64,000 nucleotides of DNA from Gammaproteobacteria bacterium (GCA_963662545.2 CAXXLL010000003.1:1280001-1344000), one strand, 5' to 3'; counted from the stretch's first letter, positions 43,652-64,000 are shown. Notes: a model not told the origin generated them from the letters alone. A program made the numbers and translations.

Positions 43652-43667
43652 CCTGCACATCGACTCT

Positions 43668-44873: not shown

Positions 44874-45033
44874 AAGGGGTTGTCGCGCCGCCGGGCGCGA
44901 CTTTTCTGGAAAACGCGAACGGAAACCGGATTTACCCACGACACGCGCGAGGATCCGAATCCCGTCGATAGGGCGTCCGAAAGCAGCGTTTTGCTGCTTC
45001 CGCTCTTAGTTAGAGCCAGTGAGTTTGCTCGAC

Positions 45034-48235: not shown

Positions 48236-48571
48236 CGCACGGTTCCCCCTCTGAATCTCAGCTCGTGCGGATACGGCGAATCTGCCAAGCCATGGGGACA
48301 TCGTCATCAACAGCCGAATCCGAAATCGAATGGTCTCAATCCCCCGATAAACGGACGGCAGTATTTGATCTAATATGAGCAGGATGGTGAATAATGCCTC
48401 TCTGACATTATTGACCTCTCGGCGACGAAAACCGACGTCGCGTTGCGCTCCTTCCATCAAGCACTGGCATGTTAGAGGGATGCCGGTACCGCTGGTTCTG
48501 GAAAGACGCTGGCGATAAACCGATTTTTGCAGCGCTTTGTATACGGACGAATCAACAATGGAGAACAAAAC

Positions 48572-48961
48572 ATGTCTAAAGCATCCGCGAATCTCGTCGC
48601 CGCCATCAAGGCGGCGAACAAAGTGCTCAGTGCGGCATTCGCCTCCGGCGACATGAAGAAGACCGCGGCTTGTTATACGAAGAACGCGAGATTGCTGGCG
48701 CCAAATACGCCGGCATGCAATGGCCAGGCCGCGATCGCGCGCTTCTGGACAGGCGCCCGCGATATGGGTATCGGACGGGTGGCGCTGCGCACGATTGAAA
48801 TCGATTCTCACGGTACGACGGCGATCGAAACCGGCGCCTACACCTTGAAAACTGCGCGGGGAACAAATCTCGATAAGGGCAAGTATGTGGTCGTTTGGAA
48901 AAGCCAGCGGGGAAAATGGAAACTGCACTGGGACATCTTCAACAGCAACAATCCATCCTGA
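48572..48961 (+). CDS. SnoaL-like/DUF4440 (NTF2-fold) protein
   Basis: G..AI..FW, A.E.G.Y, GKYVVVWK...GKWKLHWDIFNS. Confidence 0.88.
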   Translation: MSKASANLVAAIKAANKVLSAAFASGDMKKTAACYTKNARLLAPNTPACNGQAAIARFWTGARDMGIGRVALRTIEIDSHGTTAIETGAYTLKTARGTNLDKGKYVVVWKSQRGKWKLHWDIFNSNNPS

Positions 48962-49027
48962 TCGCTTGACGAGAAGCGGAGGCGCCCGTGCGGCGCTTTC
49001 GCAAATCCCAGAAACCGCCTTCGACAA

Positions 49028-49432
49028 ATGCCCGCTACGCTGACACATCTCGCACTCCACGTCGCCGACCTGGACCGTTGTCTTGCGTTCTACCAGGACT
49101 ACTGCAAGCTCCGCATCGTGCACGATCGGCTCGACCGGGGTAACCGCATCGTCTGGCTCGCGGAGCCCGGCAAGGAAGAAGAATTCATCCTGGTGTTCAT
49201 TCCCGGCGGACCACGCCGCGATCAAAGCTCCGACGATTTCTCACATCTCGGCTTCGCTCTCGATAGCCGCGAGGCCGTCGACGAGATCGCTACACGCGCT
49301 CGCGCGGACGACATTATTGAATGGGAACCGCGCGATGAACCCTACCCCGTCGGTTATTACTGCGGGGTCAGGGATCCCGACGGTAATTTTGTGGAGTTCA
49401 GTTTCGGCCAGCCGCTCGGCGCCGGCGCCTGA
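49028..49432 (+). CDS. VOC/glyoxalase family protein
   Basis: THLALHV.DL, HLGFA, RDPDGNFVEFS. Confidence 0.9.
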   Translation: MPATLTHLALHVADLDRCLAFYQDYCKLRIVHDRLDRGNRIVWLAEPGKEEEFILVFIPGGPRRDQSSDDFSHLGFALDSREAVDEIATRARADDIIEWEPRDEPYPVGYYCGVRDPDGNFVEFSFGQPLGAGA

Positions 49433-49497
49433 AGGTAGGCGCCTTCATTCGAAACCGCTGATATCACCCTTGCCGTCGTAGCCTGGTCAGGCTTCGA

Positions 49498-50235
49498 TCA
49501 CGATGATCGCTTCCTCTTTCTACGTCTTTCCCTTCGCGGGCGGTCGCTTTCGCGATCCTCCTTTAATTCGATCGGTGCCAGATTATCCTCCGCGATCTGA
49601 TTTTCACGGCGGCGTTTGAGACGGCGCCGCGTACGTCTCCCCGCGATATAAAGAATCGGAAGTACGACCAGCCCCATGATGGGATAGGACCAGGCTGCCA
49701 CGATCAATGGCAAAAACCCTGTCTGGAAGCTGATCGGCAAGATCAAATCGGGAGAAACATCGTATACCGTGGTACGGAATCTACCGCTATCGGTTTCGCA
49801 ACGGGCTCGGATCCGCTGCGAATCCTCCCCGTCCGTACTCAGAATCCGATAGCTAAATTGATTGTCATAACTTTTTAGCATTTCTCCCTGCCGCTCCGCC
49901 GGCAGGATGAACCTCGCTCCTTCTTCGATGCGCTTTAGCAGGTTTTCCTGCAGCGCTACGAAACCGCTGCCGCGCGAATCCTCGATGTCGCGCAGACGCC
50001 TGTCCGTATTGACGTAGATAATGCAGAGTTCGACGTAGTCGTGAGGGGGTGGCCAACCTGATTCACCCACCAGATTATTCGTGCACCAGAGAATCGCGGA
50101 GAGACCAGCGGGCAGAACGACGAATGCCGTCAAGAACGGATGACTCAAGGGCCCGGCAAAAGTGTACTCAAACGGTGTCCGTCGCTGCTTGCGCCGACGC
50201 TTGGCTCCCTTGGTTTCTCCTGTCTGCTTCATCAT
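49498..50235 (-). CDS. Hypothetical membrane protein
   Basis: Two hydrophobic regions flank a soluble domain; both termini are very basic. Confidence 0.6.
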   Translation of the reverse strand: MMKQTGETKGAKRRRKQRRTPFEYTFAGPLSHPFLTAFVVLPAGLSAILWCTNNLVGESGWPPPHDYVELCIIYVNTDRRLRDIEDSRGSGFVALQENLLKRIEEGARFILPAERQGEMLKSYDNQFSYRILSTDGEDSQRIRARCETDSGRFRTTVYDVSPDLILPISFQTGFLPLIVAAWSYPIMGLVVLPILYIAGRRTRRRLKRRRENQIAEDNLAPIELKEDRESDRPRRERRRKRKRSS

Positions 50236-50419
50236 GCCGTCGTCACTCGGATCTCGATCTGGCCCGCTGACGGAAAACGCCAGTCTTTACCGATGTGTGT
50301 CCGTTAGCTACTCGTATCAGCGGCCCTTTGGCGCCCAATCTTTAAACCGATCGAACGCGAAGTAATAGGCGAACCGCCCCACGGACGCAGCCGGTGATTC
50401 AGCGTCTGGAACGGCCTCC

Positions 50420-51328
50420 TTACCCGACCGGACCCAACTCTTTGGTAAAGAAATCGATCGCCAGCTTGTTCGATTGCGTCAACCCGGGCTCCGAATAAAG
50501 CCCCGTTTGGTCGAACGGCAAAAATTCAAGCCGTTTGGGCTCGCGCGCACGCTCGAACAGTTCAGCGACGCTCCACGCCGGGTGGACGATGTCGCGGCCG
50601 GAAGTGCTGATGATGAGATAGGGACGCGGCGTGATGCGATGGACGAAGGACAGCGGGCTGAATTCGATAATTTTTTCTATGGACTCAAGCGTAATCGAAT
50701 CCTTCCAGGTTGGAAACGCTTCCGGTACACCCTCGAAAAATTCCATGATCCCCGCGTCCGAAGGCATGCCACACAGGCTTCCTTGCGGGCCGAGCACCGG
50801 AATTCGATCGCCTCTGCCACCGGCAAAGCGCTTCGCACGGTCGGCTTCGACCGCCGCTAGTAATTCATCGAAGTTGACTTCGCTACGCAGAAGTTTCATC
50901 CACGTATAGCCATCCGTCACGGGCACCATGGCACAGACTGCTTTGGCACGGCGATCAATGGCCCCTACATAGCTCACCACAGCTCCAGCAAAACTCGCGC
51001 CCCAGATACCGATGCGTTTGGGATCGACGTTGCGTCGCGATTGCAGATAACTGATGCCGTTGCGGAAGTCCTCCGCTTCGTTAAGCGGGAATAACTGGCC
51101 GCGCGGTTTACCACCCGCTTTGCCGAACGTGCGGTAGTCGATTGCAAGCACGATGAAGCCGGCCTCACAAAAGGCGGTAGCCTGTTGAGTCAGAAACGAT
51201 TTGTTCAGCGAAAAACCATGGCCGATGACGAGGCCGGGGCGGCGCTCGCTGCGCGCAAGGCCTGACGGTTTGTATAGATCTGCGGTGCAATCAACGCCGC
51301 CGCTCTTGAAAGAAATCTCTTTTACCAT
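50420..51328 (-). CDS. Alpha/beta-fold hydrolase
   Basis: HGFS, DYRTFG..GG.PR, nucleophile elbow WGASFAG. Confidence 0.9.
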   Translation of the reverse strand: MVKEISFKSGGVDCTADLYKPSGLARSERRPGLVIGHGFSLNKSFLTQQATAFCEAGFIVLAIDYRTFGKAGGKPRGQLFPLNEAEDFRNGISYLQSRRNVDPKRIGIWGASFAGAVVSYVGAIDRRAKAVCAMVPVTDGYTWMKLLRSEVNFDELLAAVEADRAKRFAGGRGDRIPVLGPQGSLCGMPSDAGIMEFFEGVPEAFPTWKDSITLESIEKIIEFSPLSFVHRITPRPYLIISTSGRDIVHPAWSVAELFERAREPKRLEFLPFDQTGLYSEPGLTQSNKLAIDFFTKELGPVG

Positions 51329-51379
51329 TTTGGCTTCTCCTCGCAACACGTAGTGTCGAAAATATTTTTGAAAGGGGTG

Positions 51380-51829
51380 TCAGCCCGATTCCTCGAGGCG
51401 GAACACCGGATACATTTCGGCAATTTCGTTGAACGATTCGAGATCCGCATCGGCGCCGATCGGGAAGTAGCGCCTGACCTCGGTTTGATATGCATTTAGA
51501 TACGCCTTGAGCAAAGGCGCCCTCTCGTCGGTGCCGAGCTCCGTCACGGGATAGGTCCGGGCCGAGGCGCCGCGCCGCAAGACGACCGCCCCCGCGGCTC
51601 TCGCGTTTCGCACCCATTGTGTTTGACCGCGTGGTGCGACGAGATAAGTGCAGCCATCCACCTCGATCGGATCAACCGGCGTTGCATATCGACGACCGGA
51701 GCGCCGTCCCCGCACTTCCAATACGCGCATGTGGCCCGGGCCAATACCGAGGCTGATGAGTTTACCAAGCATCTTGTTGAAGAATGCTTCAATGACGGTG
51801 GCACACCTGAACTCAGTCGACCTATTCAT
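51380..51829 (-). CDS. Deazaflavin-dependent oxidoreductase family protein (FDOR-A/DUF385)
   Basis: LEVRGRRSG..Y.TP, YLVAPRG.TQWVRNARAAG, YPVFRL. Confidence 0.88.
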   Translation of the reverse strand: MNRSTEFRCATVIEAFFNKMLGKLISLGIGPGHMRVLEVRGRRSGRRYATPVDPIEVDGCTYLVAPRGQTQWVRNARAAGAVVLRRGASARTYPVTELGTDERAPLLKAYLNAYQTEVRRYFPIGADADLESFNEIAEMYPVFRLEESG

Positions 51830-51859: not shown

Positions 51860-52645
51860 CTACTGGCGGGCGGCGGTGCCGCCGTCAATCGGCAGCACCA
51901 CTCCGTTGCAATAGGTCGCCTCGTCGGATGCGAGATAAAGACAACCGTAAGCCATTTCCATCGGCGTGCCGGCCCGCGCCATCGGCGTGAGATGTTCGGC
52001 GATCACGGGATCGTCGAAGATGTTCATGACGTCGGCGATCATCGGTGTATCGGTATAGCCCGGGCAAACGCAGTTCGTACGGATATTTTCCTTGGCATAG
52101 GTCGTCGCCATCGCGCGGGTGAGGTTGATCACGCCGCCTTTGGACGCGCAGTAAGTGTGCGCGGTCGTCATGCCGAACATGCCCGAAAGGCTGGCGACGT
52201 TAACGATCGAGCCCCCGCCCTGCTTCTGCATGATGGGGATTATGCCGTGACACAAGTAGTAGCATGCATCGAGATTGATGCCGATCACTTCGTGCCACTT
52301 TTCAGGCGGCGTTGTCGCGATATCGTTCATCGAGTTTTCGCTTTTGTGGCTCCAACTCCAACCGACGCTTGCGGCGTGAACGAGAATATCGATGCGGCCA
52401 TAGGCGCTCATGGTCGCGTCGATTACGTTTTGCGCCTCGGCCTCCGATGAAAGATCCGCGGCCACTACCATGCCCTCGCTACCCGCCTTACGGACTTTAA
52501 TCAACGTATCGTCCAGTGCCGACTGCGTTCTCGATACACCGACTGTCGTCGCGCCTTCCTCGGCAAAGAGCATCATGCACGCCTCACCGATACCCGATCC
52601 GGCGCCGGTGATGATTGCGATCTTTCCTTCTACTCGTCCCGCCAT
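51860..52645 (-). CDS. SDR-family dehydrogenase
   Basis: TGAGSGIG, IVNVAS, YCASKGG, NCVCPG..DTPM. Confidence 0.95.
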   Translation of the reverse strand: MAGRVEGKIAIITGAGSGIGEACMMLFAEEGATTVGVSRTQSALDDTLIKVRKAGSEGMVVAADLSSEAEAQNVIDATMSAYGRIDILVHAASVGWSWSHKSENSMNDIATTPPEKWHEVIGINLDACYYLCHGIIPIMQKQGGGSIVNVASLSGMFGMTTAHTYCASKGGVINLTRAMATTYAKENIRTNCVCPGYTDTPMIADVMNIFDDPVIAEHLTPMARAGTPMEMAYGCLYLASDEATYCNGVVLPIDGGTAARQ

Positions 52646-52656
52646 CTTAGTTTCCC

Positions 52657-53844
52657 CTAGATCATTTCGATCAACGTGGCATTCGCCATGCCGCCGCTCT
52701 CGCACATCGTCACCAGACCGCAACGCCCGCCCCGTGCTTCGAGCGCGCGCAGCAGGTTGGCAACCAGGCGCCCGCCCGAAGCGCCGACCGGGTGGCCGTG
52801 CGCGATGGCGCCTCCAAACACATTGAGCTTTTCGGGATCGGTACCAAATTCCTTCGCCCACGCCAAGGGTACGGAGGCAAAGGCCTCGTTGACTTCATAG
52901 GCATCCACCTGGTCGAGCCCGATTCCGGCCCGCTCCAGAAGTTTAGTCGTCGCGGGGATGACGCCGGTCAACATCATGACCGGGTCGTCGCCGGCGACGG
53001 CGAAATGCGTCACGGCGGCGCGCGGTGCGAGCCCGAGCCGTACGGCGATCTTCTCTTCGGCGATGAGCATCGCGCTCGCGCCGTCGGTCACCAGGCTCGA
53101 ATTGCCTGCCGTGACACGCCATTCGATTTCCGGAAACCGCTGTTTCATTTCCTCGTTCTCGAAAGCCGGCTTCAAGCTGGCAAGTTTTTCCAGGGTCGAG
53201 CCCGAGCGAATGCCTTCGTCTTCGGCAACGATCCGCTTGACGCTTGCGTCGGTGTCGATTTCGATCGGTGCGATGTCTCCGGCGGCGCCGCCTCGATCGC
53301 CCTCGGCGAGTTGATGGGATCGCAAAGAAAAGCGATCGAGTGCCTCGCGGTCAAGCCGCCAGCGTGCCGCGATCAGTTCCGCGGAGATACCCTGCCGTAC
53401 CAGCCCTGCGGGGTAACGCGCGTGAAAACGGCCGCCCTCATTGTCCTTACCCATCCGATTGACGCGCATGGGGACGACGCTCATCATCTCGACGCCGCCC
53501 GCAATGACAAGATCGTAGGCGCCGGCGATGACGCCTTGCGCCGCAAAATCCATCGCCTGCTGCGCGGAGCCGCACTTGCGATCGAGCGTGACGGCCGGCA
53601 CCGATTCGGGCAGGCCCGCTGCCAGGACCGCCTGTCTCCCGATGTTGCCCGCCTGTTCCGCGACCTGGATCACGCAGCCGGTGATGACGTCCTCGATCAG
53701 GACCGGGTCGATCCCCGTCCGCTGGACGAGTGCCTCGAGCACGTGCGCGTATAGATTAACCGGGTGCAGCGAAGCCAGAGCGCCCGTGTCGCGACCGCGC
53801 CCGAACGGCGATCGCACGATATCGATGATGACCGCGCGGCGCAT
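52657..53844 (-). CDS. Acetyl-CoA C-acyltransferase (thiolase)
   Basis: DRKCGSAQQA, EVNEAFA, GHPVGASG, MCESGG. Confidence 0.95.
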   Translation of the reverse strand: MRRAVIIDIVRSPFGRGRDTGALASLHPVNLYAHVLEALVQRTGIDPVLIEDVITGCVIQVAEQAGNIGRQAVLAAGLPESVPAVTLDRKCGSAQQAMDFAAQGVIAGAYDLVIAGGVEMMSVVPMRVNRMGKDNEGGRFHARYPAGLVRQGISAELIAARWRLDREALDRFSLRSHQLAEGDRGGAAGDIAPIEIDTDASVKRIVAEDEGIRSGSTLEKLASLKPAFENEEMKQRFPEIEWRVTAGNSSLVTDGASAMLIAEEKIAVRLGLAPRAAVTHFAVAGDDPVMMLTGVIPATTKLLERAGIGLDQVDAYEVNEAFASVPLAWAKEFGTDPEKLNVFGGAIAHGHPVGASGGRLVANLLRALEARGGRCGLVTMCESGGMANATLIEMI

Positions 53845-53967
53845 GTCTAATTTGCTGTCCCGCAATAAGCCTTCATAATTCGCTGGTCCTCGCGCCTTGT
53901 ATCGCACCACGAGTCCTGCGGGACCCAATGACAAATATTATTGGGAAGTTTATTACGGGACAGTACA

Positions 53968-55428
53968 TTAGCTCGACTTGCGTAGCGACAGTTCGAGATC
54001 GCTAGATATGACCTCGATCACGGGCGAAGTCGCGAGCTGCATGAGTCGCCGCACCTGATCGAGTTCGGGCGAGGAGAGATACGGATAAGTCGTCTTGACC
54101 GGGCCGGAGGTCCGCATTTTTTCGAGGCCTTCGCCGGCGACGAGCGCACATAGGATCAGTTCGTCATCGTCGTCGGTACCGTACTCCTTGCGCAGGTCCT
54201 CTATGCTCGGTTGTGGCGGGGGATTCGCTAATACCTCCTTCGCGCGTGCCGAGGACATGATCATGTCCATGACACTTTCATCGATTGGGCCGGCGGTTTC
54301 TCCATAATAACCGGCGGCATACTGAATGACTTGGTCCGGGATCGAGGAATAGCGCTTGCCGGTTACGATGTTCAGCACCGCCTGGGTGCCCACGAGTTGG
54401 CTAAAGGGTGTCGCCATTCCAGGATAACCGAGTTCGCGGCGAACCACCGCGGTTTCCTCGAGCACTTCGTCGATGCGCTCTCGCATGCCGTGCTGCACGA
54501 GTTGCGCCTTAAGCGTGCCGATCATGCCGCCCGGGATCTGATGCCGGATCGAGAGCACGTCGTACTCCGAATACTGATTGACCAGAAAACCTGCCGCTTT
54601 GCCGACTTTTTCGAAGTGCTCCGCCACCGGCGGCAGCAGACTGATATCGAGATCGTGAGTGTGTCCCAGCAGTTCAACGTTGCGCACCATGATCTCAGTG
54701 GAGGGCACGGAAGGGCCGTTAGCCAGCGGACGGATAGCGGTGTGCAGAATACGCACCCCCAGATCGATGGCATCGAGGTAGGCTTTGGCAGACTGTCCAA
54801 GCAGATTATTCGAATGGAATTCGATGGGCTTGCCCCGCGCTTTCTCGCGGATGGCCGGCAGCAAGGTCGCCATGCGCTCCTTCTCCAGCACACCGGCCGT
54901 ATCGTAGAGCAGGAGCGTGTCGATGTCCGGTGACGCCGACAGCTTGTCCGCCTTATCCGCGTAGTATTCGTCCGAATGTACCGGGCTCAAGGTGAACATG
55001 ATCGCACCCGCGATATCCGATCCAAACTCCTTGGCAAGCTTCGCCAGCCGCAGCGTCTTATCGATATTGAACAAAACGTCGTAGATCCAGAAGCTGCGCA
55101 CGCCGTGCACGTTCAACTGCCGCATCCACGCATCCATCAATGCGTCCGGCGTTACGCCGAAAGTGACCGAGGCGTTGGAGCGCATGCCGGCGCGGATCCG
55201 CGTGCGCGGCATCGAGGCCACGATCAGGTCGAGGCCCTCCCAGGGATTTTCATAAGAATACTTGATGAGAACCTCGAACATGGACGAACCGGTCAGGTCG
55301 ACGACCCAGTAGCCCGTGCGATCGATTATCGGTGTCACGGGCAGCGCCATGCCCGCCTGCATGCGCATGCCCCAAAGGCTTTGCTGCCCGTCGCGCATGG
55401 TTTCATCGAGAAAATTAATGTGGGCCAT
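53968..55428 (-). CDS. Pyruvate-carboxylase/OadA-type carboxyltransferase subunit
   Basis: DETMRDGQQSLW, ENPWE, SPVHSDEYY, HQIPGGM, LGYP..ATPFSQLVG.QA. Confidence 0.9.
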   Translation of the reverse strand: MAHINFLDETMRDGQQSLWGMRMQAGMALPVTPIIDRTGYWVVDLTGSSMFEVLIKYSYENPWEGLDLIVASMPRTRIRAGMRSNASVTFGVTPDALMDAWMRQLNVHGVRSFWIYDVLFNIDKTLRLAKLAKEFGSDIAGAIMFTLSPVHSDEYYADKADKLSASPDIDTLLLYDTAGVLEKERMATLLPAIREKARGKPIEFHSNNLLGQSAKAYLDAIDLGVRILHTAIRPLANGPSVPSTEIMVRNVELLGHTHDLDISLLPPVAEHFEKVGKAAGFLVNQYSEYDVLSIRHQIPGGMIGTLKAQLVQHGMRERIDEVLEETAVVRRELGYPGMATPFSQLVGTQAVLNIVTGKRYSSIPDQVIQYAAGYYGETAGPIDESVMDMIMSSARAKEVLANPPPQPSIEDLRKEYGTDDDDELILCALVAGEGLEKMRTSGPVKTTYPYLSSPELDQVRRLMQLATSPVIEVISSDLELSLRKSS

Positions 55429-56827
55429 CGACGGTTTCTCTCTCGTTCATTTTAAGTTCGGGTAAATAAGTGTGTTCGAGCCAGCGGGTATGAATGGTAT
55501 TGGCTTCGAAATCGGGGTGGGCGGTGATGCCGCGCAAAATTGGCAGATTCGTAACCAGGCCTTCGATCTGAAACGCGTCCAGCGCAAGGCGCAACCGCGC
55601 CACGGTCGCGCGCCGATCCGCGGCAGTGACGATCAGCTTCGCGATCATTGAATCGTAAAATGGGGGCACCTGGTAGCCGTCGTGACAATGGCTGTCGACG
55701 CGGATCCCGGCTCCCTCGGGCGGCCGCCACCGCGTGATGCGGCCCGGACACGGCTGGAATCCGCGGGAGGGATCTTCGGCATTGATGCGGCATTCGATCG
55801 CATGCCTGGTAACGTGGATCTGATCCTGTCGACCCAGGACGCGTTCGCCACCGGCGATACGGAACTGCGCCTGAACGAGATCGACGCCTGTCACCTGTTC
55901 ACTGACCGGATGCTCGACCTGAATGCGGGTATTGACCTCGATGAAATAATAAGCTTCACGACCGGCGTCGTAGATGAACTCCACGGTCCCGGCGTTCATG
56001 TATTTCATCGACGACAGCAAGTCCACGGCGGCTTGATGGAGCTCATGGCGGACATGTGGGGGCATTGCAGCGCAGGGCGCTTCCTCGATGACCTTCTGGT
56101 AGCGACGCTGCACCGAACAGTCGCGTTCACCGTAATGCACGACGCGCCCCTTGCCGTCACCGATCACCTGCACCTCCACGTGCCGCGCGTTCTCGATATA
56201 GCGCTCCATGTACATCGTGCCGTCGCCGAAGACCTCCTCGGCCTCGGCGCTGGCTTTGTCGAATGAGGATTCGATATCACTCGCCTCGCGAGCCACGAAC
56301 ATGCCGCGACCGCCACCGCCGGCAGACGCCTTGATGACGACTGGATAGCGGATTTCTTTCGCGGCGACGACGGCCGCGCCCGCATCGGCAATTTGATCGG
56401 TGCCGGGGGCCAGCGGCACGCCCGCCGCCGCGGCAATTTCTCGCGCGCGGAGCTTGTCACCCAAGGCGTCGATGGTGCTGGCGCTGGGCCCAATGAAAGT
56501 GATCCCGTTATCCGCGCACAGGGTTGCGAGCTCGGCGCGCTCCGCAAGAAAGCCGTAACCGGGATGGAGCGCATCACAGCCCGTCGCCTTCGCCGCGTGT
56601 ACAACAAGCCTGGCGTCGAGGTAGCTTTGCCGGGAAGGCGCCGGTCCGATAACCACGACCCGGTCGGCCATACGTGCGGCTACGCTGTCGCGGTCCGCTT
56701 GGGATACCGCCTGCACGGTTTCGATGCCGAGCGCCTGCGCGGCCCGGATTACCCGTACCGCGATCTCACCGCGATTGGCCACCAGAGTGCGCTTGACGGC
56801 CACTGTTCCGGGATTACCTGATGGCAC
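55415..56827 (-). CDS. Biotin carboxylase
   Basis: ANRGEIAVR, HPGYGFLAE, GGGGRGM, ERDCSVQRRYQK, EVNTRIQVEHPV, YDSMIAK. Confidence 0.96.
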   Translation of the reverse strand: MPSGNPGTVAVKRTLVANRGEIAVRVIRAAQALGIETVQAVSQADRDSVAARMADRVVVIGPAPSRQSYLDARLVVHAAKATGCDALHPGYGFLAERAELATLCADNGITFIGPSASTIDALGDKLRAREIAAAAGVPLAPGTDQIADAGAAVVAAKEIRYPVVIKASAGGGGRGMFVAREASDIESSFDKASAEAEEVFGDGTMYMERYIENARHVEVQVIGDGKGRVVHYGERDCSVQRRYQKVIEEAPCAAMPPHVRHELHQAAVDLLSSMKYMNAGTVEFIYDAGREAYYFIEVNTRIQVEHPVSEQVTGVDLVQAQFRIAGGERVLGRQDQIHVTRHAIECRINAEDPSRGFQPCPGRITRWRPPEGAGIRVDSHCHDGYQVPPFYDSMIAKLIVTAADRRATVARLRLALDAFQIEGLVTNLPILRGITAHPDFEANTIHTRWLEHTYLPELKMNERETVDGPH

Positions 56828-56865
56828 CGTTTGGGCGGTGGCGAAAAAAGAAATTTTTCACCCGT

Positions 56866-57330
56866 TCATCGGGCACTTGGATCGATGATGGCCAGGGGTT
56901 GATCGAATTCAACCATCTCCGCATCGTTGACGCAGATCTCGTGCACCACGCCCGCCACTCCGGCCCTGACCGGGGTGAATAGTTTCATGACCTCGATGAG
57001 GCAGATCTCGGTGTCCTCCTCGATCGCCTGCCCGATTTCGACGTACGACGGTGAGCCGGGCTTAGGTGCGCGGAAAAACGTCCCCAAGTTCGGCGCGCAC
57101 ACGACCACCATGCCCTCAGGAATCACCACCGGGGCCGGCGCTGCGGGCTCATGGGGCGTCTCACCCGTGGACGCGGCTGCCTCCAACGCTACGGCACGCG
57201 GACCTCGGGCTCCTGGGACGTTGGACAGAAAGAGTTCCAGGCCCTCGATCTTGAGGTGCATTTCCTCCCAGTCGGATTGATTAAAAAGGTCGACGAGGGT
57301 CTCGATGTCCTCGGCGCTCGGCTTGGTCAT
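56866..57330 (-). CDS. Biotin carboxyl carrier protein
   Basis: AP.LGTFFRAPKPG, biotinylation motif IEVMKLF. Confidence 0.95.
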   Translation of the reverse strand: MTKPSAEDIETLVDLFNQSDWEEMHLKIEGLELFLSNVPGARGPRAVALEAAASTGETPHEPAAPAPVVIPEGMVVVCAPNLGTFFRAPKPGSPSYVEIGQAIEEDTEICLIEVMKLFTPVRAGVAGVVHEICVNDAEMVEFDQPLAIIDPSAR

Positions 57331-57363
57331 GGTCGATTTCCTCGATTGCAGATTCTTGATTCA

Positions 57364-57525
57364 GGAACCTCTGAATAAGTCATGGTGCGTCTGAATTGTT
57401 CATGCAATTGTGCAGATCAAGGCACGAATCGCAGGTAATAGCGGGGACTAGGGCTAAGGTTCGTAACGTAAGGCTCCGCGCTTTCATGGGCAAGGCAGAT
57501 GTGCCATGATTTATTGAGAGGTTCC
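57364..57525. mobile_element. 162-bp MITE, copy 3 (TSD TTCA, overlapping the PPDK-like stop codon)
   Basis: Same TIRs with one mismatch, flanked by TTCA on both sides. Confidence 0.85.
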
Positions 57526-57526
57526 T

Positions 57527-59284
57527 TCAGTCGTCCAGCGTACCGGCTCGCGCATGGATGGCCGCAAGCATCACCACCAGCGGATGCCGCGCAACGATCG
57601 ACTCGACGCCGCACGACAGCGCCGCCTTAACGCCCGCGTCGGTCTCGATGGCGCCGCCCCGCACGGCGCGGCAACCGTTCAACAAGCCCGCAAGCTTCTC
57701 CGGATCCTCCGCGCCGTCAATGCCATCCAGATCGAGCAACTCATGCTCCACGGTCACGTTGGTGGCGAGCACGCGTAGTGGACACGCCTGTGCAGCCCAA
57801 TCGGCTAGTTTGCGCAAGCACGGATCATCGGCTTCGCTGGGCGAAATCATGTCGAGTTCACCGGCGAATACCCGCCCCTCGTTGGCATCGACCGTCACCA
57901 TCTCGCCGGCGAGCGCTGTGACTGAGCCATCGCCGCAACCGACGATACTCGGTTTACCGAGGTCACGGCTGACGAGCGCCGCGTGCGAGGTCGAACCGCC
58001 CCGCTCGGTGATCACGGCTTGGCTCGCGATGATGCCGTGAATGTCTTCCGGACTTGTCGTCGCGCGCGCGAGTACGACGTCTTTACCGGCAGCCTGTAGT
58101 TTTTCCGCTTCATCGGAGTCGATCACCACGACGCCACGCCCCACCCCCTGGCAGGCCGGTTCGCCTTGCGCGAGAACGCGCGCGCCCTCCTCGGCCCGCT
58201 GCGCGAGCCGCGGTTTGAGCAAGGACCGGACCTGCTCCGCCGTGACCCGTGACAAGGCGGTCGCCGGCTCGATTCTCCCCTCGTCCACCATGTCGACGGC
58301 GCAGCGGACCGCCGCCTGCGGTGCACGCTTGGCCGAACGGGTCTGCAATAAAAACAATGTCCCTTGCTGCACGGTGAATTCTATATCCTGAACGTCATTG
58401 TTCGCGTCTTCGAGCGTCCGCGCGGCGCGCACCAGTTGATCGTAAACTTCGGGCAGTGCTTCGCCGAGCGCGCTCAAGGGTTCAGGCGTAAATTTTCCCG
58501 ACACCACATCCTCGCCCTGCGCGCAATGAAGGTATTCACCATAAGGGGCTAAATCGCCCGTCAACGGATTGCGGCTGAACAGGACGCCCGTCCCGGAACG
58601 ATCGTCGAGATTGCCGAACACCATGGACTGTATCGTCACGGCCGTACCGAGGTTGTCTGCAATGCCGTGATGCTTGCGATAGCGCTTGGCGCGTCGGGAA
58701 TTCCAGGATGCGAAGACCGCCTCGATCGCGGCCCTTAACTGCACGCGCGGATCCTCGGGAATCTTCCCTGCGCCGAGTTTTTCGATGACGGCCCTGAGCG
58801 TCCGTAGATCGCCGTCACCGAGGTCCGGCAAGGTCTGCCTGAGCACGATGCTCGCATAGAGTTCGAGGAATCGACGGTGGGTATCGCGCGCGAAGGCGTC
58901 GTCACCGGACTCCGCTGCCAGTGCGCGCTCGGTGGTATCGTTGATGCCGAGGTTCAGCACGGTATCCATCATGCCGGGCATGGAAATCGCAGCGCCCGAA
59001 CGCACCGACACGAGCAGCGGCCGATCGCCCGCCCCGAAATCCCGTGCCGTGGCGGACTCGAGCCAGGCGATGGCCGCGTCGAGTTCCGCCTCCAGCTTTT
59101 CCGGAAGCGCCGAGGATTCGAGATAAACCTGGCAAGCAGCCGTCGTAATGACCACCGCAGGCGGTACCGGCAGGTCCAGGCTTCGCATGTGCGCGATCGA
59201 CCACGCCTTACCACCGATCACTGCGCGCGTGGGTAGCGCACTCCCATCGATCGCCAGGATGAATTGACCGAACTCGTGTGCCAC
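57527..59284 (-). CDS. Truncated PPDK-like protein (nucleotide-binding and phospho-His domains; no full pyruvate-binding barrel)
   Basis: GGKA, LLVSVRSGAAISMPGMMDTVLNLG, QSMVFGN, QGEDVVSG, DIEFT...LQTR, GGSTSHAA. Only 585 aa. Confidence 0.9.
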   Translation of the reverse strand: MAHEFGQFILAIDGSALPTRAVIGGKAWSIAHMRSLDLPVPPAVVITTAACQVYLESSALPEKLEAELDAAIAWLESATARDFGAGDRPLLVSVRSGAAISMPGMMDTVLNLGINDTTERALAAESGDDAFARDTHRRFLELYASIVLRQTLPDLGDGDLRTLRAVIEKLGAGKIPEDPRVQLRAAIEAVFASWNSRRAKRYRKHHGIADNLGTAVTIQSMVFGNLDDRSGTGVLFSRNPLTGDLAPYGEYLHCAQGEDVVSGKFTPEPLSALGEALPEVYDQLVRAARTLEDANNDVQDIEFTVQQGTLFLLQTRSAKRAPQAAVRCAVDMVDEGRIEPATALSRVTAEQVRSLLKPRLAQRAEEGARVLAQGEPACQGVGRGVVVIDSDEAEKLQAAGKDVVLARATTSPEDIHGIIASQAVITERGGSTSHAALVSRDLGKPSIVGCGDGSVTALAGEMVTVDANEGRVFAGELDMISPSEADDPCLRKLADWAAQACPLRVLATNVTVEHELLDLDGIDGAEDPEKLAGLLNGCRAVRGGAIETDAGVKAALSCGVESIVARHPLVVMLAAIHARAGTLDD

Positions 59285-59318
59285 GGTGATGGTTGATGGG
59301 GTCGGTTGAAGGCTACAT

Positions 59319-59391
59319 TGAAGGGGTCAAGTCTTCAACTTTCTACATGACGTTTTACGTCATGTAGAAAGTTGAAGACTTGACCCCTTCA
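59319..59391. repeat. Perfect palindrome with 35-bp arms and a 3-nt loop
   Basis: TGAAGGGGTCAAGTCTTCAACTTTCTACATGACGT-TTT-ACGTCATGTAGAAAGTTGAAGACTTGACCCCTTCA. Confidence 0.95.
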
Positions 59392-59416
59392 GGCCCCAGA
59401 CCTGACCCCGTTTTTA

Positions 59417-60655
59417 TCAACGCCCGAGCAGCGTGATGCAGGCTACCGCCTCCTCGAAACCGCAGATGCCGCCGCCGTTCTGGGCGATGGCGATTTTTGC
59501 ACCCTCGACCTGGCGTTTACCGGCTTCGCCGCGCAGGTGGGTCACGAGTTCATAAATCTGTCCGAGACCCGTCGCACCGATCGGATGGCCCTTGGATTCC
59601 AGACCACCGGATGGGTTGACCGGGATACGGCCACCGAGGCTGGTGTCGCCACGTTCGCCCGCGACGCCGCCTTCACCGATGGGACACAGACCGATAGCCT
59701 CGGTTTCCATGACCTCGCCGGTCGCAGTGGCGTCGTGTACCTCGGCGACATCGACATCTTCAGGTCCGACACCCGCCTGCTCGTAGGCCTTGAACGCGCC
59801 GAGCCGACTGGCGTGTTTTTCGAGATCGGCCGCGGCGCGATTGCTGCCCCCCTGTAGCACGCTCGCCAGCACGCGCATCGTGCGCGACCCCGACGCACCG
59901 ATGCGCTTAAGCCCGGCCTCGTTGCATACGATGGCGGCAGCAGCGCCGTCGCTCACGGGAGAGCACATCGGCACGGTTAGAGGATAGGTGATAGGCGCGG
60001 CTGCCAGGATCTCGTCTACGGTAAACGCTTTTTGGTATTGCGAAAGCGGATTCATGGTCGAATGGTTGTGGTTCTTCGAGGCGATCGCGGCGAGCTGGCG
60101 CTGCGTCGTTCCGAATTCGCGCATGTGCATGCGAGAAAATCCGGCGTAGACGTCCATGAATACCGAGTACGGGCGCGGCGAGGTGGACCCTTCGGGTACC
60201 TCGACCCCTTCGCCCAGTTGCAGCAACTGGTTCTTGACGTTCTCTACGTCGTTCACGTCCCAGGCGCCGTCGAAGGCGCTGAACATGAGTTCCTTATCCT
60301 CGGAAAACATCTTCTCGACGCCGATGGCGAGCGCGATGTCCGCGGCGCCGGCCTTGACGTAATTCACTGCCATGTGGAAAGCGGTGCTGGCGGTCGCACA
60401 GGCGTTTTCGACGTTGACCACCGGGATACTCTCGATACCGAAGGCCCGGAGCGCAATCTCGCCGCGCACCATGTCCTGGCCCTCCATGTGACCCTGAACG
60501 CAATTGCCGAAAAAGACCGCCTCAAGGGCTTTGACGTCGCAACCGGCATCTTTGAGCACGCCGGCTAGGGCTTCGCCGGCGAGGTCTTTCAGACTGCGAT
60601 CGAGGTGTTTACCGAAATGCGTCATGCTGACGCCGGCCACGTACATTTCACTCAT
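59417..60655 (-). CDS. SCP2/SCPx-type thiolase-family protein
   Basis: ENACATASTA, EVHDATA, NPSGGL.SKGHPIGATG, AQNGGG. Confidence 0.92.
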   Translation of the reverse strand: MSEMYVAGVSMTHFGKHLDRSLKDLAGEALAGVLKDAGCDVKALEAVFFGNCVQGHMEGQDMVRGEIALRAFGIESIPVVNVENACATASTAFHMAVNYVKAGAADIALAIGVEKMFSEDKELMFSAFDGAWDVNDVENVKNQLLQLGEGVEVPEGSTSPRPYSVFMDVYAGFSRMHMREFGTTQRQLAAIASKNHNHSTMNPLSQYQKAFTVDEILAAAPITYPLTVPMCSPVSDGAAAAIVCNEAGLKRIGASGSRTMRVLASVLQGGSNRAAADLEKHASRLGAFKAYEQAGVGPEDVDVAEVHDATATGEVMETEAIGLCPIGEGGVAGERGDTSLGGRIPVNPSGGLESKGHPIGATGLGQIYELVTHLRGEAGKRQVEGAKIAIAQNGGGICGFEEAVACITLLGR

Positions 60656-61063
60656 GATCCTGTTCCTCTCAACTTTTCACCGCATACCGCAGGCGCGGGA
60701 TTTTTCGGAGCCGACTATGTTACTGGGCTTGGGACGTTCTTTGCCACTCGGAACGGCAGGATACGGCTGCACCCCTGCTAAGCCCGGAAATCTCACCGGG
60801 AATCGGGATCCTGGTCCAAGCCCGCCTCGTGAGATATCCAGGCCAGGCCAACGGCGGCATGGTTGACAAGGGACGCCGTGTCGCAGAGATTGTGTTTAGC
60901 GCGCCCGATCGCGCCAATAACAATGAAAGAGCTCAATCGCCCGAACCGTTTGAACTAAGCAATTGCTGCGCACCCGTACGGTAACGCCGGGAATCCGCAT
61001 CCAATACAAAAAGAGCCCTGCGGGGTCACAACTCCGCGGGACGACCATCGAGGAGCAGGAAAT

Positions 61064-63211
61064 ATGGCTGCGAGAAGGCCACGCGCCCGCAAAGGCACTA
61101 ACTGGATAGCGCTCGACGCCGGCGGCACCCTGACTGACGCCGTCATCGTTGATAAGCAAGGGCAGTTTCTGGTCGGCAAACATCTGACCAACAAACAGGA
61201 CGAATCACAAAGTTTCCTCGGCGCGATCAGAGACGCTACCGACACCGCGGATCGCGACCTCGACCAGACGCTTGGCGCAAGCGACGTCATCGTCTACGCC
61301 GGTACCATCATGTTGAATACCCTGCTCAGCAAGACCGGTGCCAAAGTCGGTCTCATGGTCAGCCAGGGCTTCGAAGACTATCTGCTGATGGAGAAAGGCG
61401 AAGGCTCCTGGATCAGCTATCCGTATTCCGATCGCCTGCATACCGTGACACACCACCACGCGGATCCCACGATCCCGCGCAACCGTATCGTCGGCATCCA
61501 GGGGCGGCTCGATATGTTCGGCGGCGAAGTCATCCCGCTGCGGAAATCCGATGTCGAAGAACAGACCCGGGTGCTAATCGATGAAGGCGCCGAATCGATC
61601 GCGGTGATGTTCCTGTTCTCACACATGGATCCAGTGCATGAACAACTCGCCGCCAAACTCATCCGTAAGATCGATAAAAAAATTCCGATCATTCTCTCTT
61701 CCGAAATCGCCCCCACGCACAAGGAATACACCCGTCTGTCGAGCGTGGTCGCGCAGGCCTATGCGGGTGAGCGTGCGCGAACCCATTTCAAGCGGGTCGA
61801 GGCGCAAGCGCGCGCCCATGGGTTCAACAAGGAAGTGTCCACGCTTCTCGCACACGGTGGAACCGTTCCGATCAGCACCAAGCGACTCTACGAATCCTAC
61901 GTCTCGGGTCCCGTGGGAGGGGTACTGGGCGGTCACTACGTGGGCGAAATCATGGGCTCGGGCAACGTCGTCGGCTGTGATATCGGCGGCACCAGTTTCG
62001 ACGTCGGCATCATTCGCGACGGTATCATCCCGATCATCCGCGAACCGACCTTGCTCAGTTTCCGTACCAACATCCCGATGATCCATACCGAGTCGATCGG
62101 CGCCGGCATGGGCTCAGAACTCGACGTGCATCCGCTGACCGGCAAATTGACGGTCGGGCCGAAAAGCGCGGGCTCCGACGTCGGACGCTGTCTCAATTGG
62201 GACTTACCGACCGTCACGGACTGCCACATCCTGCTCGGCTACCTCGACCCGAACAATTTTCTCGGCGGCGACGTGCCGCTGGATCTGGATGCCGCGGTCA
62301 AAGCGCTCGAACCGATGGCCAAGCATTTCAACACCAAGACCTACGAATTCGCGGAACGCGCCCATCTGCTGGTGTGCGACTACATGAAGGAATTTCTGGT
62401 CAACATGCTGCGCGGACGCGGCTACGACATCCACGAATACGTTCTGATGATGTACGGCGGTGGCGGACCGCTAGGCCTTGCCGACGTCGTCGAGGGACTG
62501 GAATTCAAGGACATCGTCACGTTTCCGTTCGCCGCCGTATTCTCCGCCTTCGGCGTGCTATGCGCGCCGCGGCGCTACCGCTACCACCACAGCATCGTAG
62601 CGGGCTGCCCGCCGGGCGTGGACGATCACATCGTGGGGGTCAAGCAAGCGGCGATCGAATCCATCAACGCCACCTGGAAGCAACTGGAGGCGCGCGCCAA
62701 AGCCGATTTCAAAGGGCATGGCTGGAACTTCAGCGACGCCAAGCTCAACCATTTTGTCTACGTCCGCTTCACCAACCAGTTATCGGACTTCGAGGTGTTG
62801 TGGGACAGCCCGCGGCTCAAGTCGACCGCCGAGCTCGACCAGTTGATGAAACGTTTCGAATCGGTCTACACCACGATCTATCCCGAACAGGCACTGGAGT
62901 CGGAATCCGGCTACCAGATTCTCGAGGTGGCGCTTGCGGCCGACATCGACACGCCTAAGCCGAAGATCCCGATCATGACGATGTCCCGCAAAAAGCCGCC
63001 TTCGGCATCCGAAAAAGGATCGCGCAAGGTTTACTATCGGGGCAAACGCCGCGAATTCCGCGTTTACGAAATGGACGAGCTCAAGGCCGGCAACGTGGTC
63101 AACGGTCCCGGCATTATCGAGCATCCGGCGACGACGTTTTATATACCGCCCGGGCATCACGCCGCATTCGACAAGCGGCGCCTGATTCACTATCGCAAAG
63201 GCACGAAATAG
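61064..63211 (+). CDS. Acetone carboxylase beta subunit-like protein (hydantoinase A/oxoprolinase family)
   Basis: DAGGTLTD, YPYSDRLH, SGPVGGV.G, DIGGTSFDV, SIGAG.GS, GP.SAG, YGGGGP, FSAFG. Confidence 0.9.
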   Translation: MAARRPRARKGTNWIALDAGGTLTDAVIVDKQGQFLVGKHLTNKQDESQSFLGAIRDATDTADRDLDQTLGASDVIVYAGTIMLNTLLSKTGAKVGLMVSQGFEDYLLMEKGEGSWISYPYSDRLHTVTHHHADPTIPRNRIVGIQGRLDMFGGEVIPLRKSDVEEQTRVLIDEGAESIAVMFLFSHMDPVHEQLAAKLIRKIDKKIPIILSSEIAPTHKEYTRLSSVVAQAYAGERARTHFKRVEAQARAHGFNKEVSTLLAHGGTVPISTKRLYESYVSGPVGGVLGGHYVGEIMGSGNVVGCDIGGTSFDVGIIRDGIIPIIREPTLLSFRTNIPMIHTESIGAGMGSELDVHPLTGKLTVGPKSAGSDVGRCLNWDLPTVTDCHILLGYLDPNNFLGGDVPLDLDAAVKALEPMAKHFNTKTYEFAERAHLLVCDYMKEFLVNMLRGRGYDIHEYVLMMYGGGGPLGLADVVEGLEFKDIVTFPFAAVFSAFGVLCAPRRYRYHHSIVAGCPPGVDDHIVGVKQAAIESINATWKQLEARAKADFKGHGWNFSDAKLNHFVYVRFTNQLSDFEVLWDSPRLKSTAELDQLMKRFESVYTTIYPEQALESESGYQILEVALAADIDTPKPKIPIMTMSRKKPPSASEKGSRKVYYRGKRREFRVYEMDELKAGNVVNGPGIIEHPATTFYIPPGHHAAFDKRRLIHYRKGTK

Positions 63212-63244
63212 ATCGCTGTGCCGAGTTACGAGACGATTAATGAA

Positions 63245-63301
63245 TCGCCCGCAAGCCGGCCCCTACAACATTGCCTCCGTAGGAGCTCGCTTGCGGGCGA
63301 A
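63245..63301. repeat. Inverted pair of GTAG-type REPs
   Basis: TCGCCCGCAAGCCGGCCCCTAC-N12-GTAGGAGCTCGCTTGCGGGCGAA between the acx-like genes. Confidence 0.8.
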
Positions 63302-63330
63302 CAACGCTACCAGATGAAGGAAATCCTTCC

Positions 63331-64000
63331 ATGACCAAGCACATGACCTTATTGGAACGCCTCGACCTGTCCGAAAAGCTTTACGAGCAGACCGGTCATT
63401 ACCAGGGTCTTAAAAAGCTCGCCGTACACGACAAGGATCCGCTCAAGTTCGAGGCGTTTCACTCGCGCCTTCTCTCGACCATCATATCGGTGCGTGAAAC
63501 GATGAAGTACATCGCCTCGTCGCCGGCCATTCGCGACTTCGAGGAGTTCGTCATCGGCCTGTATACACCCGAAGGCGATGCCATCGCACTTTCGACCGGC
63601 ATCATGGTGCACGTGCACACCCTGTCTGAATTCATCAAGTTCATGATCCGCAACGACTACGAGGACGACCCCTGTATCCGGCCCGGCGATATATTCGAGA
63701 ATAATGAATCATGGGCGGGCGGCGTGCACACCCCGGACGTCATGACTTGCATCCCCGTCTACCACGAGGGCGAACACATCGCGTGGATCGGATCGGTGTC
63801 GCACGAGCTCGAATCGGGGACCTACGAAGGTCCGGGCATGACCGTATTCTCGCCCGATCGTTTCGGCGAGGGCCTGCACATCAGCGCCGAGAAGGTCGGC
63901 GAGAACGACCATTTCAGGAAAGACTATTTCATGCGCCTGAAGATGGGCCTGCGCAATTCGAATTGGTGGCGGCTGGACGACAAGGCCAAGCTCTCCGGCT
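63331..64000 (+). CDS. Acetone carboxylase alpha subunit-like protein (hydantoinase B family), 3'-truncated by the window edge; absent from the ORF track
   Basis: Manual translation: MTKHMTLLERL...TGHYQGLK.L....DPLKFE...IASSP...LYTPEGDAIALSTGIMVHVHT...I.PGDIF.NN....GGVH..DV...HELE. Confidence 0.9.
   Translation, partial: MTKHMTLLERLDLSEKLYEQTGHYQGLKKLAVHDKDPLKFEAFHSRLLSTIISVRETMKYIASSPAIRDFEEFVIGLYTPEGDAIALSTGIMVHVHTLSEFIKFMIRNDYEDDPCIRPGDIFENNESWAGGVHTPDVMTCIPVYHEGEHIAWIGSVSHELESGTYEGPGMTVFSPDRFGEGLHISAEKVGENDHFRKDYFMRLKMGLRNSNWWRLDDKAKLSG

Follow-up and report, generated by a model that had tools for sequence, protein, structure and literature searches.

A conserved operon pairing a barrel-less PPDK relative with a biotin-dependent carboxylase of separate clade as a candidate ketone carboxylation system

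To our knowledge, ketones, which are chemically inert, are carboxylated by few enzymatic routes: those of the hydantoinase-type acetone and acetophenone carboxylases and, since 2022, a route for phenolic acetophenones that joins a kinase to a biotin-dependent enzyme. Does a locus in which a truncated relative of pyruvate phosphate dikinase (PPDK) adjoins a biotin carboxylase (BC) encode a further version of the latter? The locus lies between positions 51,860 and 64,000 of a 64,000-nucleotide stretch of DNA, hereafter the window, from a Gammaproteobacteria bacterium (GCA_963662545.2, CAXXLL010000003.1:1280001-1344000; genome G000). A minus-strand run of genes encodes two thiolases, the truncated PPDK (tPPDK), biotin carboxyl carrier protein (BCCP), BC, a carboxyltransferase (CT) and a short-chain dehydrogenase/reductase (SDR), with genes resembling those of acetone carboxylase diverging on the plus strand. 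All the genes that a first-pass annotation had listed here, the divergent pair included, were located at their coordinates in protein scans against Pfam and NCBIfam.

The operon is real and conserved, and the balance of evidence tips narrowly towards a reading in which tPPDK would be the head of a multi-part phosphohistidine kinase, acting with a biotin carboxylase of its own CT clade to carboxylate a phosphorylated ketone, as a variant of the logic of the Hpe and Acv systems. Ketone carboxylation followed by thiolysis, as the first-pass annotation had it, is the best-fitting logic. Its novelty does not hold: a dikinase acting with a PycB-type biotin carboxylase on a phosphorylated ketone is already described for Hpe and Acv (PMC9618137; 10.1101/2022.04.28.489975).

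The minus strand from 51860 to 60655 is most likely one catabolic operon composed of two modules, a kinase head formed by tPPDK and a biotin carboxylase formed by BC, BCCP and CT. Its genes are tightly spaced, with an overlap of 14 bp between CT and BC and remaining gaps of 11-196 bp. No minus-strand terminator-like site was found in this interval, in a scan that as a whole did not rise above chance, the counts of promoter and terminator sites being no higher than in shuffled controls. An RNA run covering 53968-59284 was looked for, and none was found.

Linkage was surveyed in 41 genomes (G000 and 40 relatives). The truncated PPDK family is present in 19 of them, and in 17 of these 19 a CT of the window's type (type A, 74-100% identity) lies within ~3.7 kb of tPPDK on the same contig and strand; in the remaining two (G014 and G016), tPPDK and CT are on separate short contigs. 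Sixteen loci of the window's bacterial family were searched by tblastn and compared with three alphaproteobacterial loci (L001-L003) and three actinobacterial loci (L004, L005 and L012), the latter six being taken from the best 80, mostly full-length PPDKs, of at least 598 loci matching the tPPDK alignment. The order tPPDK-BCCP-BC-CT-thiolase is found at 15 of the 16 family loci, at all three alphaproteobacterial loci and in G075, a gammaproteobacterium of another family, a recurrence that chance would not explain. The thiolase directly follows CT at every family locus (16/16), at the three alphaproteobacterial loci and in G075, and is itself followed by the SDR at 15 of the 16 family loci; the SCP2-type thiolase is present at 8 of the 16, and at L001. 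In the alphaproteobacteria the CT is better conserved than tPPDK, with 67-73% identity to that of the window against 57-61%. None of BCCP, BC and CT was found within 10 kb of tPPDK at the three actinobacterial loci. Lack of conservation of the linkage, which the first-pass annotation had named among the grounds for giving up its reading, is not borne out: truncated PPDK and CT are linked in 17 of the 19 tPPDK genomes, in the alphaproteobacteria and in G075. Of 400 scored genomes sampled evenly across the class, 4 carry the truncated PPDK family, so that the system is patchy in distribution; where present, it is tightly conserved.

Only L101, from genome G002 of the window's genus, departs from this order, its BC gene being cut down to a short remnant. 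The 247 bp between BCCP and CT at this locus (7373-7620) consist of the first BC codons joined to the last, reflecting either an internal deletion of ~1.2 kb or a collapse in the assembly, which is in 150 contigs.

The tPPDK of the window is composed of an ATP-grasp nucleotide domain (PPDK_N), a phosphohistidine swivel (the mobile PEP-utilizers domain; PEP, phosphoenolpyruvate) and a C-terminal tail of ~100 amino acids (aa). It scores 735 bits on NF004531/PRK05878 (cut-off 456), covering profile positions 5-531 of 534, and 508 bits, below the cut-off of 843, on TIGR01828, the model of full-length PPDK. Alignment with PPDK structures does not extend beyond about residue 541 of the 874 in PPDK, and no Pfam match to PEP-utilizers_C, corresponding to the PEP/pyruvate TIM barrel, was found. 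The catalytic residue, His434, is located in the motif GGSTSHAA and is invariant across the 16 family sequences aligned. Because all of the homologues listed, at least 120, are 553-619 aa long and contain the same two Pfam domains, tPPDK is a whole conserved protein and not a broken gene. Ten longer tPPDK-like representatives (690-781 aa) contain no additional Pfam domain, and hence offer no clue from fusion. By tblastn, tPPDK is the sole gene of its kind in G000, the only other PPDK_N-type match being a PEP-synthase-like gene of 27% identity. Actinobacterial members of the family were found to be 46-51% identical to the window protein.

Rv1127c (VadK) of Mycobacterium tuberculosis, a barrel-less PPDK, presumably falls under the same NCBIfam model, NF004531. 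In a 2026 paper it is reported to autophosphorylate with ATP/Mg on His422 and to interact with methylcitrate-cycle enzymes, in a flux-tuning role, and has been read as a regulatory kinase (PMC13400623). Co-expression with its operonic partner Rv1126c raised its solubility, and a wash with 2 M NaCl was used to part the two (PMC13400623). In the literature found, Rv1126c is named only in VadK papers and one review.

Lacking a substrate-binding domain, tPPDK is unlikely to act on a ketone alone, as the first-pass annotation had envisaged, and relatives of the window locus supply three further kinase parts, in some cases as fusions. Directly upstream of tPPDK, these relatives carry genes for a phosphohistidine carrier, a protein of ~520 aa termed here unk520, an AMP-forming CoA ligase and a protein of ~200 aa termed unk200. 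The set is seen in L088, L090, L002 and L119, and without the ligase in L084; at L001 the layout of open reading frames (ORFs) matches, with the Pfam domain of the carrier and the homology of the ORFs unconfirmed there. The carrier, ~250 aa long, has the PEP-utilizers swivel as its only domain, with its histidine in the motif TRSH. The unk520 protein matches no Pfam or NCBIfam family and has ~100 invariant positions among 20 sequences. Its confident AlphaFold2 model (pLDDT 83.7, pTM 0.86) matched no solved structure, with a best E of 0.18 in a Foldseek search of the PDB, where scattered weak START/Bet-v1-like rows appeared, a best Z of 2.3 in a wide VIA search and no usable match in the ESM Atlas; these comparisons used the whole-chain model, and a known fold is possible. 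In unk200, a winged helix is followed by a helical bundle, and only the N-terminal winged helix finds matches (Foldseek best E 0.006). No ATP-binding domain was found in the carrier, unk520 or unk200 with Pfam or NCBIfam.

Natural fusions indicate that these parts work together. At L004 (Nocardia uniformis NBRC 13702; 10001-12103), a single open frame of 701 aa holds both tPPDK and an unk200 homologue (hhalign probability 99.9, E 9e-33), and at L005 (Mycolicibacterium porcinum) an unk200-like gene lies 185 bp after tPPDK. The 722-aa protein P0316 joins unk520 to unk200 (hhalign probability 100), and a fused form of 730 aa is found in L093. Taken together, tPPDK, carrier, unk520 and unk200 are most simply read as a multi-part dikinase. 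At L004, the fusion gene is followed by a Y_phosphatase3-like gene (12183-12734).

In G000, genes for a carrier (245 aa), unk520 (516 aa) and unk200 (201 aa) are located on another contig (C2:1306417-1309454), within a run made up of hydantoinase A, hydantoinase B (caprolactamase-like, without a gamma subunit), a tyrosine-phosphatase-type enzyme (Y_phosphatase3), carrier, unk520, unk200 and a second SDR. The CoA ligase has an orthologue in G000 (68-70% identical), located at C3:193778-195235 with another Y_phosphatase3 gene nearby. The kinase and carboxylase system of G000 may be split over three loci. In the survey of 41 genomes, tPPDK and unk520 occur together in 19; none has tPPDK without unk520, two have unk520 only (each with CT at a contig end) and 20 have neither.

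Two types of unk520 can be distinguished. Type A, found beside tPPDK, shares 62-66% identity with the unk520 of G000; type B is 72-94% identical to that copy and is part of a cassette consisting of phosphatase, carrier, unk520, unk200 and SDR. Across 16 B loci, phosphatase, carrier and unk520 are invariably present, unk200 and the SDR are each present at 15, a hydantoinase pair is nearby at 8, and a CT paralogue (CT_B) is found at only 2. The unk520, carrier and unk200 genes of G000 are of B type only, and its CT is of A type only. The idea that the remote G000 locus is a decayed carboxylase locus was rejected, because the usual B cassette has no CT. At the 'short' A loci (L082, L085, L086, L096, L099 and L101, in addition to that of the window), the SCP2-type thiolase lies close upstream of tPPDK, without carrier, unk520 and unk200 in between; this arrangement was considered as a peculiarity of the window's genus and rejected as such, as at least four other genera share it (L085, L086, L096 and L099). 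In G023 (C111:36810-38357), B-type unk520 matches fall into three pieces in different frames, owing to a disrupted gene or to sequencing errors.

The closest solved relatives of the window CT are PycB (5ks8_C, 227 bits), OadA (2nx9_A, 199) and transcarboxylase 5S (1s3h_A, 175), and its best NCBIfam matches are the PycB and OadA models. Its scores are nevertheless far under the PycB/OadA equivalog cut-offs (NF010644, 272 versus 734; TIGR01108, 265 versus 756.5; NF008985, 259 versus 718). We take the metal ligands of pyruvate carboxylase to be an Asp, a carbamylated Lys and two His, and its pyruvate-contacting or catalytic residues to be an Arg, a Gln, a second Arg and a Thr. In alignments with the three structures, the window CT retains Asp13 and His205 of the metal site but has Tyr (YDTAG) where all three structures have the carbamylated Lys, and Asn (HSN) where they have the second His, a replacement common to all five clade-A and clade-B CTs aligned, the window CT included. 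Arg12, Gln16, Arg82 and the Thr of ATPFSQ are retained, the segments RDGQQS, GMRSNA and ATPFSQ aligning with RDGHQS, LLRGQN and VTPTSQ. The window CT is also the single PYC_OADA domain of G000.

A quick maximum-likelihood tree places the A and B CTs in one clade, with support of 98 in the Shimodaira-Hasegawa-like approximate likelihood-ratio test (SH-aLRT), and sets the window CT apart from the Hpe/Acv type with support of 96-98. A third type (L093, 44-47% identical, with Glu in place of the Lys) lies beside this clade, and Hpe/Acv-like and OadA-like sequences lie apart, the Hpe/Acv type being represented by the CT of L094, assigned by synteny, in place of the named XccA, AcvE and HpeA. The L094 CT shares 33% identity with that of the window and has the Lys and a His-x-His, without Arg82. 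The extra CT of G004 (L126) is found on a very long branch. Judged by its sequence, the window CT branches separately within the PycB family and its metal site is remodelled, in keeping with the first-pass view that it is no ordinary PycB or OadA. A CT that has lost metal ligands while keeping its arginines would suit a substrate with an anionic group, carboxylate or phosphate, next to the carbonyl.

The third system type, at L093 (4215-15989, genome G011), encodes a pair of CT paralogues, which share 44-47% identity with that of the window and have Glu for the carbamylated Lys, together with BC, BCCP, a phosphohistidine carrier and the 730-aa unk520::unk200 protein. Two enoyl-CoA hydratases, an APH-type kinase and a family-less 371-aa protein are encoded there as well.

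In the sequence of events proposed for the window system, an SDR would oxidize a secondary alcohol to a ketone, and phosphate would pass from ATP to His434 of tPPDK, from there to the carrier and unk520/unk200, and finally to the ketone, with either the enol oxygen of the ketone or a neighbouring hydroxyl as the acceptor. BC would put CO2 on the biotin of BCCP, and the CT would move it to the carbon beside the carbonyl, yielding a beta-keto acid. The phosphate would be lost during carboxylation or be taken off by a phosphatase, and CoA ligase and a thiolase would set acetyl-CoA free. We infer all of these chemical steps, as well as the identity of the substrate and the cooperation of the unlinked parts in G000. 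Phosphoenol chemistry is possible.

The divergent plus-strand genes were compared with acetone carboxylase. The best solved chain for hydantoinase A is the acetone carboxylase beta subunit (5m45_B, 461.7 bits) and that for hydantoinase B is the alpha subunit (5m45_A, 437.5 bits), and beta, alpha and gamma subunits are encoded in one plus-strand operon, in that order. Scores of ~440-460 bits over ~700 residues may leave room for a ketone other than acetone. Such genes adjoin the operon at only 2 of the 16 family loci (L082 and L101), both from the window's genus, and hydantoinase A has 23 tblastn matches in G000, the query's own gene included. The neighbourhood is incidental at the scale of the family, and it is this genus-level neighbourhood that the first-pass picture of two parallel ketone carboxylases at one locus draws on.

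Several observations weigh against the proposed mechanism. The carrier, unk520 and unk200 of G000 are unlinked to the operon and of the paralogous B type, and because the A-type copies are only 62-66% identical to them, their cooperation with the operon is an assumption. The usual B cassette has no carboxylase and may serve another pathway. No phosphatase was found in the operon with Pfam. The CT keeps the pyruvate-contacting Arg12, Gln16, Arg82 and Thr; together with the lack of a PEP carboxylase and the single PYC_OADA domain, this means that pyruvate or a 2-oxoacid could be the substrate. The published VadK work treats the family as a regulatory kinase and not as a small-molecule kinase (PMC13400623). 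Finally, the 41 genomes surveyed are related and are not independent samples.

These points bear on three rival explanations. PPDK chemistry is enolate phosphorylation, and tPPDK might hand its phosphate directly to a ketone held in the barrel of the CT, which would replace the lost one, so that carboxybiotin attacks a phosphoenol ketone while the acx-like genes provide a second, parallel carboxylase. This would agree with the position of tPPDK, which always adjoins BCCP-BC-CT whereas carrier, unk520 and unk200 can be remote, with the short loci, which lack these three genes before tPPDK, and with a CT minus two metal ligands yet with two arginines able to hold a phosphate; the acx-like set is moreover of the acetone-carboxylase type, complete with a gamma subunit. 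However, all 19 tPPDK genomes have at least one unk520, and the fusions join tPPDK to unk200 and unk200 to unk520, none of them involving the CT. The parallel carboxylase is at odds with the single genus in which acx-like neighbours occur (2 of 16 loci) and with the 23 hydantoinase-A matches. We hold this explanation to be quite unlikely. That the three biotin components instead form an anaplerotic pyruvate (or 2-oxoacid) carboxylase, with tPPDK as a remnant partner at the PEP-pyruvate-oxaloacetate node, appears very unlikely. In G000, which is 96.85% complete, no PEP carboxylase (PF00311) and no ATP-dependent PEP carboxykinase (PEPCK) were found, and the window CT, as the only PYC_OADA domain, retains the Arg, Gln, Arg and Thr that contact pyruvate and matches PycB and OadA best. 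Against this stand scores far under every PycB, OadA and 5S cut-off (272 versus 734), the replacement of the carbamylated Lys and one His in all five clade-A/B CTs aligned, the conserved place of the CT in an operon alongside a thiolase, an SDR, a CoA ligase and parts of a kinase, the patchy distribution (4 of 400 genomes of the class), and the presence in G000 of a GTP-PEPCK and one malic enzyme.

A regulatory role, as proposed for VadK, would make tPPDK a histidine kinase that tunes the carboxylase or thiolase by phosphorylation or binding, the substrate never being phosphorylated. Autophosphorylation, interaction with methylcitrate enzymes and flux tuning, all reported for VadK (PMC13400623), are consistent with such a role, as are the score of tPPDK above the cut-off of the model shared with Rv1127c and the winged helix of unk200, of a kind seen in regulators. 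The match of unk200 to regulators is weak, however, and confined to the winged helix (Foldseek E 0.006). Proteobacterial tPPDK sits inside an enzyme operon of fixed order, and a second carrier, the highly conserved unk520 and the phosphatase better fit a phospho-tagging cycle like that of Hpe and Acv, which makes a purely regulatory tPPDK improbable in our view. Kinase-coupled carboxylation of a phosphorylated ketone, with tPPDK as the head of a multi-part kinase, is the reading that we prefer.

A bolder extension of the preferred reading, which we regard as rather doubtful, is that tPPDK and unk200 would be the ancient core of a so far undescribed class of modular small-molecule dikinases, the same pair as VadK and its operonic neighbour, which in proteobacteria would charge exchangeable carrier/unk520 modules. 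The product would be an enol phosphate or an alpha-phospho-hydroxyketone with its phosphate placed like the carboxylate of pyruvate, and the CT would follow PEP-carboxylase-like chemistry. If this were true, marine bacteria would have a second, biotin-dependent solution for carboxylating non-aromatic ketones, and VadK, instead of being a regulator only, could be the half of a metabolite kinase that does the charging.

The features of the locus are collected in Table 1. The start of BC is probably near 56800, and that of the SDR is the ATG at 52645, preceded by an AGGGG site, instead of 52861. By tblastn, five BC paralogues are present in G000, the window BC among them.

Table 1 Features of the minus-strand operon and the divergent acetone-carboxylase-like genes (window coordinates unless a locus is named)
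Feature	Coordinates	Strand	Evidence and remarks
SCP2-type (lipid-transfer-protein-like) thiolase, 412 aa	59417-60655	minus	PF22691 + PF00108; opens the run
tPPDK (barrel-less PPDK, VadK/PRK05878 family), 585 aa	57527-59284	minus	PF01326 + PF00391 only
BCCP, 154 aa	56866-57330	minus	PF00364; biotinylation motif EVMKL
BC, ATP-grasp	55415-56827	minus	PF00289, PF02786, PF02785; NF006367 607.7 bits (cut-off 597)
CT, PycB/OadA-like TIM barrel, 486 aa	53968-55428	minus	PYC_OADA 98 bits; without fused BCCP
Thiolase (acetyl-CoA C-acyltransferase type), 395 aa	52657-53844	minus	PF00108 + PF02803; TIGR01930 401 bits (cut-off 240)
SDR oxidoreductase, 261 aa	51860-52645	minus	PF13561/PF00106; closes the conserved run
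Hydantoinase A, acetone-carboxylase beta-like	61064-63211	plus, divergent	PF01968, PF05378, PF19278
Hydantoinase B, acetone-carboxylase alpha-like	63331-64000	plus	PF02538; first 223 of 743 aa, gene continues past the window end
Gamma subunit	L081 4574-5083		PF08882 (Acetone_carb_G); 3' of hydantoinase B, outside the window

Further minus-strand genes lie on the SDR side of the run. Directly downstream of the SDR (48221-51829) are genes for a deazaflavin-dependent nitroreductase-family protein and an alpha/beta hydrolase with weak lactonase-family matches, and two family-less ORFs; the hydrolase is also present at the locus in L082, L083 and L101, and the two ORFs recur within the genus only. 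The interval 40393-46122, upstream of this region, encodes a glyoxalase-like protein, two luciferase-like monooxygenases and a cytochrome P450, and luciferase-like monooxygenases also border the operon in L088 and L090. Between 36682 and 40184, an MtrB/PioB-type outer-membrane porin is spread over two adjacent ORFs, possibly an interrupted gene: the ORF at 37255-39204 covers profile positions 25-493 and that at 36682-37248 positions 503-635, and a multihaem cytochrome adjoins at 39213-40184.

The operon would extend the kinase-plus-biotin route with a kinase built from different parts and a CT with a remodelled site, and its enzymes would be candidates for biocatalytic fixation of CO2 onto ketones. 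Common among members of one marine gammaproteobacterial family, the system is also present in alphaproteobacteria, which points to an unrecognized sink for an abundant ketone or secondary alcohol. As the pairing or fusion of tPPDK with unk200 reaches actinobacteria, it bears on the mechanism of the VadK family. What the window adds is the split over three loci, the incidental acx neighbours, the remodelled CT site and the tPPDK-unk200 pairing that reaches the VadK family.

No published description of a tPPDK/unk520/unk200/biotin-carboxylase system was found in a search that covered the literature apart from the supplementary files to the Hpe, Acv and VadK reports, which could bear on distribution. 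With VadK, the window protein shares the barrel-less two-domain architecture, the same catalytic histidine motif and the NF004531 family. The actinobacterial loci L004, L005 and L012 differ from the window in having no BCCP, BC or CT within 10 kb; like the proteobacterial systems, tPPDK is fused to an unk200 homologue at L004 and followed by one at L005. Compared with PPDK itself, tPPDK is without the third domain, the C-terminal PEP/pyruvate TIM barrel. The CT has the TIM barrel of the PYC_OADA family in common with PycA/PycB, OadA and transcarboxylase 5S, and its substrate-contacting Arg, Gln, Arg and Thr align with theirs; it differs from them in having no fused BCCP, in scoring below the equivalog cut-offs, in the Tyr and Asn that replace Lys and His, and in being encoded in a catabolic operon. 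Acetone carboxylase spends ATP on a phosphorylated ketone ahead of carboxylation, and the plus-strand genes share the beta, alpha, gamma order of AcxABC (Xanthobacter, Aromatoleum), being closest to 5m45 and 5svb; AcxABC, however, belongs to an enzyme family unrelated to the biotin system, and its neighbourhood with the operon is found only at the level of the genus.

The closest functional parallel is provided by the HpeHI/HpeCBA/HpeD enzymes of Rhodococcus rhodochrous GD02 (hpeHICBADEF), in which a dikinase phosphorylates the ketone substrate before a PycB-type biotin carboxylase acts on it (PMC9618137), and by AcvAB/AcvCDE/AcvF of Sphingobium sp. SYK-6, which follow the same phosphorylate-carboxylate logic (10.1101/2022.04.28.489975). 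In both, phosphorylation is followed by carboxylation of the acetyl group, dephosphorylation, CoA activation and cleavage (PMC9618137; 10.1101/2022.04.28.489975), the PycB-type CT carboxylating phospho-acetophenones (PMC9618137). As for the XccABC enzyme of Aromatoleum aromaticum, which the first-pass annotation cited, xccABC is itself clustered with hpeHI homologues (PMC9618137). An unrelated kinase can also feed an Acv/Hpe-type carboxylase: the acetovanillone route of Novosphingobium aromaticivorans depends on MarK, an ADP-forming kinase of the UPF0261 type (PMC12624787), and MarK has no homology to the kinase parts described here. A canonical Hpe/Acv cluster was observed at L094 (4471-11699) in G018, a genome of the same bacterial family as the window, and is composed of a PRK08296-type 650-aa protein, a PPDK_N 349-aa protein, BCCP, BC, CT and a NagD-type HAD protein; with it, one bacterial family contains two kinds of kinase-coupled carboxylase.

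Like Hpe, Acv and Xcc, the window system combines a phosphohistidine kinase (AMP-forming in Hpe and Acv) with three separate components, BC, BCCP and a PycB-type CT. It would share with Hpe and Acv a CoA ligase, cleavage of a beta-ketoacyl-CoA and a phosphatase, the last encoded here at the remote locus, and its operon partners (thiolases, SDR and ligase) match the Hpe sequence from beta-keto acid to CoA ester to cleavage (PMC9618137). The differences lie in the components. The window kinase is of PPDK lineage and barrel-less, its carrier being a protein apart and its two other parts belonging to no known family, whereas that of Hpe is the two-subunit, PpsAB-type HpeHI; the pair made up of a PRK08296-type protein of ~650 aa and a PPDK_N-only protein, seen in L094, is absent from the window, and alignment of unk520 with the HpeH-like protein of L094 gave an hhalign probability of 0.2. 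The window CT, 33% identical to that of L094, belongs to a separate clade and lacks the Lys and His ligands. A Y_phosphatase3 enzyme at the remote locus takes the place of the NagD-type HAD protein, which is not in the operon, thiolases stand in place of the hydrolase, and no aromatic-catabolism genes are present in the operon. The window system is thus predicted to work like Hpe and Acv, yet by its kinase lineage, CT clade, phosphatase family and cleavage enzyme it is not a member of either.

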